NCBI GenBank assembly: GCA_000934665.2
Contig: KZ539074.1
Span: forward strand, 1 to 64,000
Source of the DNA: Catajapyx aquilonaris
Taxonomy: Eukaryota
Direction of reading: 5' to 3'
DNA length: 64,000 bases
A program made the position numbers and the translations under genes. How positions within the stretch are numbered: the first letter of the stretch is position 1; each line of letters opens with the position of its first letter. A model generated the notes under the pieces. The model did no database searches, was not told the DNA's origin, and saw only the letters and a program-made list of their open reading frames with translations. Shown in pieces: positions 14,627 to 34,998 of this stretch.

Positions 14627-15324
14627 ATGGCCAATCCCATTATCTACGTTGGTAAGCAAGTAATTGGACTTTTAAAAGACAAGACTCCACATAGGCTACT
14701 TTTACATTATCTATTGCAGGATTATTACTGGCATATACCATCGGCAATAGCCAAGGTGATGACCCACCAGTATGTTCAGCTGTAGGAGGCCTGGTAAGAG
14801 CATGATATGCAATACACAGATGTAATATTCCTAAACACTTGTTGCAAGCCAATTAATTTTGTGTCCCACAGTGCTCCACAACAAACGGATGCTGTGGACA
14901 AACATGCTGCGAAAACAACGTGTGCGTATCTCGTAAGTTTACTTATCTATCTTACAAGTTATTCTGGGTAGGCCTGTTCAATACCTATTTATAACTTTAA
15001 AAATGTGTGATGTTCAAAAATATAATATTGACATTTATTCATCTTTGGTTATCAGAATCGTTTTCGTGCTCTGGTGACCTGGCACCAGTCCCTGGCTTCG
15101 ACGTGTGCACCGATCACTACTGCCGGCCTGGCGAAGTTTGCTATCTAGGCGAACTACGTTGCGACGACGAGTTTGGTCGCAACTGCCAGAAGATGCCCTC
15201 ATGCAGGGCAGGAAGCCCTACGAGAAGCCCTGGACGCATTATCGTAGAGCACAACTCGGCTGAACTTCGTTCTCACCTGTACTACCCGCTTGTGACTCTC
15301 ATTGTGCTTGGGAGAGTCATCTAA
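14627..15324 (+). CDS. Cys-rich protein C1 (signal peptide + 8-Cys knottin-like domain + one 6-Cys module + hydrophobic GPI-like tail); exons 14627-14651, 14720-14793, 14872-14932, 15056-15324; 142 aa
   Basis: GT-AG introns join in frame: MANPIIYVGLLLAYTIGNSQG-DDPPVCSAVGGLCSTTNGCCGQTCCENNVCVSQSFSC...CTDHYCRPGEVCYLGELRCDDEFGRNCQKMPSC...NSAELRSHLYYPLVTLIVLGRVI*. Confidence 0.85.
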
Positions 15325-16049
15325 GGATATTCAGGGTCAGGCACGTTGCCTGTAGAAAAACAAACACCACTGCACATGATAAACTTCCACGGCAAATTAA
15401 ACACGTCAGCAGTATGTAAAGTGTCTTTCGGAATCGCCTTAAATATGGGGGCATATTGGCCAGTACAGAATATGTTATTTGTACATAAGTCAATATTGTC
15501 CTGCAAAAACTGACAGATCTCGTACAGTTCAAGCATCAGTAAGCATATGCATGAAACAGAATGTAATTTTTCGACTACAGAACAATAAAATGCACGGTAC
15601 GCCTGTGCCACACTTTCGTCACAGACGGCTGCTTATTTGCCGTTTCCCAAACATATTTTCGTATGCCGGCAGTGCTATGTGTAACTGTTCGTGCTTTGAC
15701 CTCATGTGATACTTCTGCTTTATATACCCCAACACCTGCGGAATTAATGAGATAGCAACAGCTGCATCTCCCATGATGTTTGAAAATAGCGGCCGACCTT
15801 GTAGACTATACAATTTTTGGCTTGAATGCTTTTGCCGAGCTTATTTGTCGTCCAGCAAAAGTGACAGTGACTATTTCTTTTCGTAATAAGTAGTGTGTAA
15901 CATGCAAGTACGTGACACGAATGGTAGTTCCCATGACGTCAGTGCTCAAAGGCCTAATAGGGTGAACGTGGTTTGATCACGTACAAGAGTGCAGTGTGCT
16001 ACACTGCGATGTAAGAGAAGCAAGGACAGTTTTTTTCAGATACATCGCC

Positions 16050-16875
16050 ATGAAGATATTGACTGCTTTTCTCCTGCAAGTGGCGTTAGTGTTGGGGTCC
16101 AGAGATGACCCTTTCTGCAAAAAACCTGGAGAGCAGGTAAAACCAACTGTCACGAGCTGTAAAACTTACAACGCAGGATAGCAATAATATCAGCAAGCAT
16201 TGTTAAAAGTACAAGTAATTATCAACTGCGTAAATTTTATCTTGCGTTCAAATTGTGATAAATTTAAAGAACTTAACGTTTTAGTTGGTATCTCCCCAGC
16301 ATTTTCCCTTTAATTTTCATCCTCTTTGTAGCCTCACACATTGACTGATATATAACGATATTGCAGGAAATAATAAATGCAAGCTTGTTTCAGTGCACTT
16401 CAACTGCGAGCTGCTGCGAAGGATGCTGCGAGAACAGCGCGTGCGTGATACGTAAGCAACAATTTGACAGCTACATCTTATAAACTAATACAATATCACA
16501 GGAATTGAAAGATACCATGATTTCAGTAAAGTTTTTATCATTCGAAAACGTTGCACCCTTACAAAGAAAATCTAAAAATAAAAGACAGAAACTGCGTGTA
16601 TATGTAGTGCAATATCCCGCATTATCCTTCACTTTATTGTCAGGGAAAGTTGACGGATTTTTTTGAAAATTAGGAAGATATTTATCCTAAGTTTCATGTG
16701 GTTGTTTTTTTAAGCGTCAGGAAGGCAGCCATGCACCGACGAAGTAGGATCGACAGTGGGTCCTGATGCGTGCACCAGTCATGTCTGCCCTCCAGGACAG
16801 CGTTGCATACTCATGACGAGAAGCTGCGAAATCGAACCCTGCAGTCTGAATCCTTCTTGTACACCCTCACCCTGA
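16050..16875 (+). CDS. Cys-rich secreted protein C2, paralogue of C1 without the hydrophobic tail; exons 16050-16136, 16394-16451, 16715-16875; 101 aa
   Basis: MKILTAFLLQVALVLGS-RDDPFCKKPGEQCTSTASCCEGCCENSACVIPSGRQPC...CTSHVCPPGQRCILMTRSCEIEPCSLNPSCTPSP*. Its two introns match C1 introns 2 and 3 in position and phase. Confidence 0.85.
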
Positions 16876-17491
16876 CAGTCCAACAGTTAGAAACATGGCA
16901 GCACTCTGAAGATCTTACTCCATCATTTAGTGCGACTTTTGACGCCTGTGATGCAACAGATGAGAAGGAAACAATGTTTCTTATGTTGTCCGCATTGCTC
17001 TTGCATACAATAGTGAATAATTGTTCTTACGATTTTGATGAGAAACTCACGCTCCAAAAACTATTATTTCCTCTGTTGAAGACCCCTACTTGATTGCATG
17101 CAGGGAAGAAGATTCCTCATGAAGCATGAAAGTGCTTTAGCCCCCAAGTTTACACCCCCCAAAATTGCAATTTGTCTGACTCAGGGCTGGGCAACAACTG
17201 TTCATGTAATTTGTGTAATTCAATGGTAAGCATATTCACTCCGATCACTCATAATTATGGTAACATATTTTACCAATCACTGCAATGACGTTGTTTGAAA
17301 AAATACGGCTGTACTATTCAGAATCCTTTAGAAATAAATGGTTTCAAACTATTGCTAGATAAATGACTTTTCTTTAGGAAATAATTTATTTTGGTCTACT
17401 CAGGTGGACATAATGTTAAAATTATGCATAGAAAATATATTGTCCGTAAGTGACCAGTAACTGCATACTTTCCCCTATTATTGTTATTGTA

Positions 17492-33281: not shown

Positions 33282-33379
33282 TATATATAGATGCTTCACA
33301 AAACACGTCGAAGCATTTCAGCTCTGCAGGTGTCTACGAGTCACCACAATACGTACAGTACATCTCTGAAGCAAGGAAG
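33282..33379 (+). promoter_or_regulatory. TATA box and non-coding first exon of C6
   Basis: TATATATA at 33282, donor ggaag|gtaaaa at 33379/33380, and acceptor tttcag directly before the ATG at 33851. Confidence 0.55.
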
Positions 33380-33850
33380 GTAAAAACTTGCACAGCAGTG
33401 TCCATCTTGTTCAACTCTGCAGTGTAAGACGTGTTGAGAAAGGGCTTACTTATACTGTCATATACTTCTAGCAAAGTTTGACAGTGGGCCCTCGTAAAGT
33501 AATATTGATTGCTGAATCTGAACCTTATCCATGTATGCTCAAGGCCACCATAATTTGTAGGAAGCAATGCATCACAGCAATCCGGGTGTTCGCCACTGTT
33601 TTTTTTTTTTAAATCGGTGATCTCATTCTTACTTTGAAGCCGCTGCCTTATGATTAATACAGTAGTATCATAGTACGTGTATTTTGAGGTGTTAAATTTT
33701 CATCCAAACAGGAGTCCAGTAAATATTCATCAAGAATACTGCACAATTAGTAACTGTATATACTATAGGGTCTACTGTAATTTCAAGTGAAGTTTGTCTA
33801 GTTTGTTTTATAATAATATTACCTTTGATATTGACTTCAGTGTGTTTCAG

Positions 33851-34998
33851 ATGGAAAACTCATCAAAGTTAATCGTCTGCATCGTTCTGTTGTCTGCCTT
33901 AAGTGGATTGTTTGCCGATCCTCGTCCGAAGTGGCGTGTGAGTAACTTACGTATATTTTAGCTATAATACTACACAATTTCGTATATCACCTTACGTACA
34001 GAGTGAGGCCGAACTGCAGGTCAACCAGCCCCCTGTGACTAGACTGACCCAAAGCAAGTTTAAAACCTATTTAAAACATACCGGAGAGAGTCACCCCTAC
34101 GTGGGTAACAAAGTAAACAATGATGATCTTTTAGATTTCACCTCTATAGAGGCAATGCAATTTATTTTGGAAATTATGCACGGATCATCCTCCAGCATAG
34201 TATATGAGCCTTAAAGTTTATATTCTACACTCTACACTCTATATAGTCTATACACTCTTTACGGGATCAGTTCTGTTTATAGATAATTGATTGGTGGAAC
34301 TCATAGGGCAAGCAAGTAATTAATTTTGGCATATCCTTCGTCGCGTCGAGTGTCGGATGTTGGTATCTATGTGTGGATTTTAGACTTTTTTCGGGCCAAT
34401 CTAGCGACTGGATGACATGCAGTCCTCACTCATATTGTGTATATATAACATTATGACAGCACAGTAGCCTACATCATACAGCTTCCGTTTTTCACAGTGC
34501 GGGAGAGACTGTCCTTCTCGCTGCTGCCCTGATGGTAATTGTACTTCATACTGCAAGGAACCATGTCGCGATGGCGAGAAATGCTACATGGTGGACGTCC
34601 AGTGCATAAGAGCACCGTGTCCTCCTCAACCCCAATGCCTACCTATAAATCCCTGCGACAACAGCTCGGTCACCTGTGAACCCGGCCAAAAATGTCGTCG
34701 TCATAAATCCAAACCTCACTGCACTTGCCCACCATGCGCTCCGAGAGCAGGATGCTTCCTTACGAAAAATCCTTGCCAGGACATCTCTTGCGATTCACCA
34801 TACAAATGTTACTTGCAGCAAACCAACGAATGCTCTCTTCCTCCTTGCCCACCTTCTGCAGTATGCGCTTATCCCACTCCCTGCGATTATGTAAAGTGTG
34901 CCGGGGGTCCCTGCCTAAACCGCCCTTCTGATTGTAATCGTGGGGACAGCAAGGTGGAATGCTATCCTGTACCCGAGTGCACTCGCCGGCTGGATTAA
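33851..34998 (+). CDS. Cys-rich secreted protein C6 (N-terminal 5-Cys segment + four modules, RGD in last module); exons 33851-33937, 34498-34998; 195 aa
   Basis: MENSSKLIVCIVLLSALSGLFADPRPKWR | CGRDCPSRCCPDGNCTSYCKEPCRDGEKCYMVDVQCIRAPCPPQPQC...CNRGDSKVECYPVPECTRRLD*; AATAAA near 35060. Confidence 0.9.

Follow-up and report, generated by a model that had tools for sequence, protein, structure and literature searches.

A window of 64,000 nucleotides of Catajapyx aquilonaris, that is, the whole stretch of DNA analyzed (assembly GCA_000934665.2, contig KZ539074.1, positions 1 to 64,000 of the forward strand), was found to contain at 14627-34998 a cluster of six genes (C1, C2, C4, C5, C5b, and C6) and one relic (C3) for secreted proteins built from beads of a cysteine-rich module. 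According to the sequence comparisons, the six-Cys form of this module is an unnamed, old, and widespread variant, which the tests applied place outside Pfam FOLN, CREMP proper, and every named family of inhibitors. It is very probably a CREMP/follistatin-N two-disulfide module, the hairpin of which carries an extra, probably disulfide-closed loop between Cys4 and Cys5. By domain company, protease inhibition appears to be the best-supported function, and the proposal that the beads bind or inhibit proteases is made tentatively, as a possibility falling somewhat short of probable.

Identity and distribution of the module

None of the six module-bearing exons of the window matched a Pfam family at E ≤ 1, FOLN (PF09289) included, in agreement with the preliminary description of the cluster, in which no named family could be assigned. 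Among 33 relatives, one passed the FOLN gathering cut-off and three further ones were below the threshold. No match was obtained in the PDB with single sequences, while profiles matched CREMP 9PGB (E 1.9e-5 and 5.7e-5), which was the best multi-module PDB match, and the centipede TRPV1 toxin RhTx 2MVA (E 9.7e-4 and 5e-6, the latter over profile positions 1-23). Follistatin was matched weakly (E 0.3-5). The follistatin-N-like character noted before for the first three Cys was upheld. Matches of the profiles to Notch EGF were rejected, being out of register and running across EGF boundaries. No PDB protease inhibitor was among the significant sequence matches, hirudin reaching E 0.77.

When the module was aligned with CREMP, the loop segment appeared as an insertion between CREMP Cys3 and Cys4, within the hairpin. 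AlphaFold2 predicted one hairpin per module, with a predicted local distance difference test (pLDDT) value of 87 for C6 and 82 for module A; in these models, Cys3 faces Cys6, and an 11-residue excursion between strands 14-19 and 31-36 holds Cys4 and Cys5. On homology and strand register, the disulfides would be 1-3, 2-6, and 4-5. Foldseek returned 9PGB among four weak rows (best query TM-score 0.49, root-mean-square deviation 2.7, E 9.8). No significant match was found by fold searches with the four-module model or the single module, which show neither a new nor a shared fold because small disulfide modules score poorly.

In the available text of PMC12723725, the CREMP module is given as Cx4Cx5Cx8C, with bonds Cys1-3 and Cys2-4 and a loop above a beta-hairpin. 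CREMP is described as a fibre protein whose modules sometimes carry a follistatin-like N-terminal annotation and to which slime-mould spore-coat repeats are related (PMC12723725, PMC3068167, available text). The window modules share with it the C-x4-C-x5-C start, the arrangement as tandem beads in secreted proteins, and, probably, the N-terminal loop above the hairpin. The CREMP module has four Cys and an 8-residue hairpin, whereas in the window modules, which have six Cys, at least 17 residues that include a further Cys pair separate Cys3 from the closing Cys; moreover, CREMP proteins contain more than 80 near-identical modules in runs together with VWD/C8, in contrast to the 1-4 divergent modules of the window proteins, which lack VWD/C8.

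Kinship with a fibre protein and with spore-coat SP75/Dp87, as far as the available text of PMC12723725 and PMC3068167 covers them, is one basis for the main rival to protease binding, namely that the proteins help to build a matrix outside the cell (mating plug, cement, egg coat, or cuticle lining) as a structural secretion, forming disulfide-locked chains in which the loop serves to space the beads or as a surface for cross-linking. This explanation, which we consider unlikely but the most serious of the rivals, is consistent with the odd number of Cys in mature C5 (27) and with the 29 Cys in the main exon of a paralogue on C3155 described below, which would leave free Cys for cross-links, as well as with the Gly/Tyr/Ser-rich N-terminal stretch of that paralogue and the Cys (10-16%) and Pro (7-15%) contents of the cluster proteins. 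The nearest Atlas cluster was DP87-like, at a score of 0.84 that is below the recognition threshold and makes it a lead only. However, the proteins are short (99-195 amino acids (aa), 1-4 modules) and their repeats divergent compared with the long uniform runs of CREMP, single-module proteins exist in bacteria and as C1 and C2, and the conservation of the loop across kingdoms suggests a binding surface.

A phmmer search over 1.84 billion proteins yielded 33 matches, one of which (P0011) was an EGF false positive, and the profile search retrieved 177 proteins (E ≤ 0.001), the sources of which range from bacteria to insects. Among the matches listed (120 of 177) were proteins of Myxococcota, Phytophthora, Pythium, Lagenidium, Pristionchus, Necator, Caenorhabditis, Orchesella, Nilaparvata, and Macrosteles, and many metagenome proteins; a Homalodisca protein also carries the module. 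Often with the loop C-I-R-A-P-C, the module was thus found in Hemiptera, springtails, nematodes, oomycetes, and myxobacteria. By these sequence data, the module is not lineage-specific, contrary to the lineage-specific family supposed earlier; the genes themselves may be. A word-indexed search with C6 as the sole query gave six candidates, none of them significant, and a prokaryote genome scan with P0020 gave one weak locus among 23 candidates. Database entries for the relatives bear names that mislead (Notch-like, Dp87-like, hypothetical). A literature search, most subscription papers and bioRxiv supplements being outside its reach, gave no account of the six-Cys variant and no paper with the string 'CIRAPC'.

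A hidden Markov model (HMM) built from 208 outside modules only assigned 9.5-38.1 bits to nine of the 11 six-Cys window modules, with 7.3 bits for the best of 15 shuffled windows; the C1 module and module D of C6 were not recovered by it. A pattern search of 152 proteins found 365 plain four-Cys and 462 six-Cys matches, some of the latter being mis-registered chains of four-Cys modules, and the two types alternate in many relatives. A loop of the form x-x-x-P was present in 282 modules of 132 proteins, with Arg or Lys at the second position in 188 of the 282. The IRAP loop occurred 100 times in 79 proteins, and the KKAP and FAPP loops were found outside the window too. Over 128 outside proteins, the loop had the lowest entropy of all segments (1.39 bits versus 1.99-2.56), a contrast inflated because the sequence set was gathered with an IRAP-bearing query.

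Genes of the cluster and variation of the loop

Six-frame translation and splice-site reading gave six GT-AG gene models, distributed over both strands, that are open and consistent in phase; in each of them, one or two short upstream exons encode a hydrophobic N-terminus (best 10-residue Kyte-Doolittle (KD) value 2.3-3.2). All seven coding introns of C1 (3), C2 (2), C4 (1), and C5 (1) were skipped exactly by contigs of run X1, a single public run of unrecorded kind that is possibly not independent of the assembly. This run did not cover C5b, and the C6 intron extended to the limit of the compared region; the missing cover of C5b and C6 exon 1 carries no weight as evidence. C1, C2, C4, and C5 are real genes, and C5b and C6 very probably are too. 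The six intact genes with separate exons for the putative signals, the pseudogene, the birth-and-death duplication, and the 1-4 module copies per gene, all put forward in the preliminary description, were confirmed. It did not mention the eight-Cys heads with which C1 and C2 begin, the Cys-rich ones of C4 and C6, the hydrophobic tail of C1, or the loci on C3155 and C865.

The cluster is a local birth-and-death set of secreted bead-on-a-string proteins, since C5b arose from C5 by a 3-kb tandem duplication and lacks two of its modules, and since C3 has decayed. The duplication of approximately 3 kb from C5 to C5b spans 23644-29005 (plus strand), the flanks being 85-96% and the coding parts 97% identical. 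The C3 relic (17498-17596, minus strand) has an incomplete Cys set and a first half out of frame; it showed 52% identity to C5 over 27 aa (E 2e-4 in a search within the window) and 3.3 bits with the outside-module HMM, and no signal exon was found for it. C1 and C2 are 39% identical, and C4 and C6 are 54% identical.

C5 (25433-26044, plus strand; exons 25433-25504 and 25580-26044; 178 aa) contains modules A at 25592-25678 (loop KKAP), B at 25694-25795, C at 25814-25906 (FAPP), and D at 25922-26023 (NNEGSQVP). C5b (28490-28860, plus strand; exons 28490-28561 and 28633-28860; 99 aa) retains only modules C and D, with loops identical to those of C5. C4 (18827-19279, minus strand; exons 19279-19205 and 19117-18827; 121 aa) consists of a signal, a five-Cys head, module A at 19048-18962 (ITYP), and the seven-Cys module B at 18946-18848. 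C6 (33851-34998, plus strand; exons 33851-33937 and 34498-34998; 195 aa) has a five-Cys head followed by modules A at 34552-34638 (IRAP), B at 34654-34755, C at 34774-34866 (SLPP), and D at 34882-34980 (NRGDSKVE).

The cluster comprises 14 modules in total (one each in C1 and C2, two in C4, four in C5, two in C5b, and four in C6). The single six-Cys module described earlier held for 11 of them, which carry all nine loops listed at that time, but three seven-Cys modules, in which C-x-C-x-x-C replaces the loop, had not been set apart. Ten of the 11 six-Cys modules have a spacing of x3-4 followed by x5 between their first three Cys, and module D of C6 has x4 twice; module A of C5 has an additional Cys within the x5 spacing. 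Loops are ordered by repeat position: ITYP, KKAP, and IRAP in class A (C4, C5, C6), FAPP twice and SLPP in class C (C5, C5b, C6), NNEGSQVP twice and NRGDSKVE in class D (C5, C5b, C6), and DDEFGRN and EIEP in class E (C1, C2), with the seven-Cys modules forming class B (C4, C5, C6).

The Cys4-Cys5 loop had been called hypervariable; this did not hold when modules were matched by position, the apparent hypervariability arising because the listed loops mix different repeat positions. In 19 position-matched pairs from 14 modules, three of them from the C3155 paralogue, with unequal-length pairs omitted per segment, identity in the loop was 34/60 (57%), compared with 16/49, 24/80, 52/102, and 51/95 in the segments Cys1-2, Cys2-3, Cys3-4, and Cys5-6, respectively (30-54%). 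Length differed in seven of the 19 pairs for the loop and in six for Cys1-2. The ratio of nonsynonymous to synonymous substitution rates (dN/dS), proposed earlier as a check, was 0.42 for C5/C5b, 0.57 for C4/C6, and 0.24 and 0.30 for C5/C6 on four pairwise ungapped stretches, none above 1. The modules are under purifying selection, and they do not evolve fastest in the loop, of which only the length varies. Selection on the loop is still possible because the proportion of nonsynonymous differences in the loop alone equals that of synonymous ones (pN 0.28 versus pS 0.29) on approximately 46 synonymous sites from non-independent pairs.

C1 (14627-15324, plus strand; exons 14627-14651, 14720-14793, 14872-14932, and 15056-15324; 142 aa) encodes a signal, an eight-Cys knottin-like head C-x6-C-x5-CC-x3-CC-x4-C-x6-C, one module at 15106-15204 (loop DDEFGRN), and a hydrophobic C-terminal tail. 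C2 (16050-16875, plus strand; exons 16050-16136, 16394-16451, and 16715-16875; 101 aa) encodes a signal, a head C-x6-C-x5-CC-x2-CC-x4-C-x8-C, and one module at 16771-16860 (EIEP). Both heads have the Cys framework C-C-CC-CC-C-C, with spacings 6,5,0,3,0,4,6 and 6,5,0,2,0,4,8, which is the pattern of knottin toxins (conotoxin framework XI).

The plan of C1 and C2 resembles that of Nilaparvata lugens APA33926, which has a signal, an eight-Cys head C-x6-C-x5-CC-x2-CC, and then six-Cys modules with IRAP/FAAP loops. The planthopper protein differs in having three six-Cys and two four-Cys modules and in the late spacing of its head (x11, x3), and as a query against the genome it gave no match in the window. 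According to the available text of PMC4990865, APA33926 (comp34363_c0) is a secreted seminal fluid protein by proteomics (2-3 peptides), its function being given there as unknown, with an accessory-gland value of 17 reads per kilobase per million (RPKM) and C. elegans Y69H2.3 as the top BLAST match.

A venom or salivary role, in which the proteins would target receptors or ion channels in a host or prey animal, is improbable. It is suggested by the four-Cys core C-x4-C-x5-C-x6-C with two disulfides common to RhTx (PMC4589873, available text), by the head of C1 and C2 with its knottin-toxin Cys pattern, by the weak matches of the planthopper head, used as a stand-in query, to spider knottins (E 0.22-7), and by the deposition of APA33926 also as putative salivary protein WJX09102. 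RhTx, however, consists of one 27-residue peptide that lacks the Cys4-Cys5 loop, and its charged C-terminal binding surface, as described in the available text of PMC4589873, is missing in the window proteins; its fourth Cys aligns with module Cys4 by sequence, whereas its structural counterpart is probably Cys6. In addition, the loop is not hypervariable, dN/dS is below 1 overall, and the module occurs commonly in microbes and in organisms that have no venom.

The C1 tail (15205-15324, plus strand) contains no Cys and consists of an N-S-A stretch followed by a hydrophobic end, the last 13 residues averaging KD 1.88; a run X1 contig covers it without gaps and with a single differing letter at 15208. 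It is a possible glycosylphosphatidylinositol (GPI) signal. Module D of C6 contains the tetrapeptide RGDS in its loop (34939-34950, plus strand), which is lacking in C5 and C5b. If the proteins were cell-surface or adhesion ligands, C1 would be GPI-tethered and C6 would offer RGDS at the loop tip to integrins. The RGDS expected by composition is 0.005 within 11 loops, where it was noticed post hoc, and 0.11 over the six proteins, and many bacteria-like metagenome relatives have lipoprotein-like starts as judged by eye. Neither the corresponding loops of C5, C5b, and the C3155 paralogue nor any of the 462 pattern matches outside the window contain RGD, and adhesion is the least probable of the roles considered.

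Related loci and neighboring elements

A paralogue at C3155:4323-5170 (minus strand) combines modules A-B-C-D with an N-terminus rich in Gly, Tyr, and Ser, and its D loop is aromatic and 18 residues long; it is situated between immunoglobulin-like exons of the opposite strand. At C865:89266-109860 (minus strand), a single strand carries, within 21 kb, at least 15 stretches of the module pattern and at least seven of the WAP pattern, and all three WAP candidates tested matched Pfam WAP. This mosaic is possibly one large multi-domain inhibitor or matrix gene. Many single-module exons occur in it, and a Pro/Gln/Glu/Arg-rich repeat region is located near 104500-105700. Genome searches with the C1 exon, C5, P0020, and P0023 gave additional matches only to C865 exons; the counts of related loci in the genome are lower bounds.

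The mosaic of WAP and module on C865, together with the occurrence of small secreted Cys-rich proteins in a birth-and-death cluster, is consistent with innate-immune or antimicrobial binders comparable to WAP-domain crustins. Five of the six proteins are net acidic (-2 to -8), unlike cationic antimicrobial peptides, and such a role is about as improbable as a venom function, if not slightly more so.

Two tRNA-Ile genes with the GAT anticodon are located just upstream of C1 at 13274-13347 (plus strand) and 14012-14085 (minus strand), and a 217-codon open frame occurs upstream of the cluster at 6586-7236 (plus strand). Elements resembling miniature inverted-repeat transposable elements were observed at 19421-19853 and 20001-20550, with arms of 95 and 85 nt. 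The region between C5b and C6 at 29658-32158 is a probable DNA transposon, in which inverted repeats of 306 nt, 99% complementary, flank a 253-codon minus-strand frame; no convincing Pfam match was found for this frame. An insect-type dmrt99B-type gene lies at 43323-59800 (plus strand), with a DM domain exon near 43278-44072 and a DMA motif exon near 58100-58972, approximately 14 kb apart.

Protease binding as the proposed function

The protease role is proposed because of the domains that accompany the module in relatives (TIL, antistasin, Kazal, and Kunitz) and because WAP exons accompany it in the same genome. Any Pfam match was present in 21 of the 103 relatives scanned, and 13 of these 21 contained TIL (5), antistasin (5), Kazal (2, one just below the cut-off), or Kunitz (1). 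PrcB C-terminal domains were found in two of the 21, one of them among the 13 with inhibitor domains. P0004, P0006, P0018, P0019, P0077, P0112, P0129, and P0135 are bacteria-like metagenome proteins in which the module is accompanied by Kazal, Kunitz, antistasin, PrcB-C, or DUF6748 domains. In the nematode mosaics (Necator, Pristionchus, and Caenorhabditis CBG20702), six-Cys modules with IRAP/KKAP loops are fused to TIL domains, unlike in the window proteins; no known function in worms or ants is given for this group, which includes Y69H2.3, in the available text of PMC12458967. Of the roles raised in the preliminary description, effector or protease inhibitor, the inhibitor is the one favored by domain company, and the venom or salivary effector is without direct support.

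The bead would be a three-disulfide variant of the CREMP, Dictyostelium C4C, and follistatin-N module, in which the two-disulfide core (Cys1-Cys3 and Cys2-Cys6, by homology) would hold the beta-hairpin. A lengthened hairpin would carry the presumed Cys4-Cys5 bond, closing a short ring, commonly I/V/F-R/K/T-A-P, which is then followed by Pro-Pro. Exposed at the hairpin tip, the ring may engage extracellular proteases, often via Arg or Lys. In the simplest view, the ring is the binding site, because a hairpin-tip ring is kept across kingdoms, often with Arg or Lys. Protease-resistant beads would then restrain proteases in a secretion, perhaps a defensive or reproductive one; beads in tandem would provide avidity, and position-specific loops may address different targets. 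By analogy, the window proteins may work like the multivalent secreted binders among secreted cysteine-rich repeat proteins (SCREPs; PMC6262176, available text), the architecture of which fits C4, C5, C5b, and C6, C1 and C2 being single-module. SCREP is a descriptive class and not a family, its characterized members use Kazal, Kunitz, or inhibitor cystine knot (ICK) domains, and the word 'follistatin' is absent from the available main text of PMC6262176.

Several observations weigh against protease binding. Arg or Lys is retained in just two of the 11 window loops, and the geometry of the presumed ring is unlike that of a canonical inhibitor loop. The window exons had no Pfam match to Kazal, Kunitz, TIL, antistasin, WAP, or pacifastin, and 82 of the 103 relatives had no other domain in the Pfam scan.

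In its full form, the proposal is doubtful: the six-Cys module would represent an undescribed domain family of myxobacteria, oomycetes, nematodes, and hexapods, with a CREMP/follistatin-N scaffold and an inserted disulfide-closed C-x-(R/K)-x-P-C ring acting in non-canonical, ring-based protease inhibition, and the cluster would be one animal radiation of it with the ring fixed per repeat position. Fast-turnover clusters of secreted Cys-rich genes are ordinary in arthropods; the module is of more note than the cluster, having no Pfam model, at least 177 proteins, a confident in silico fold, and a short ring that stays the same from kingdom to kingdom. Should this ring inhibit proteases, the module would be a new small inhibitor scaffold tolerating loops of 4 to 18 residues and would account for uncharacterized proteins that are secreted by oomycetes and parasitic nematodes or occur in the seminal fluid of planthoppers.

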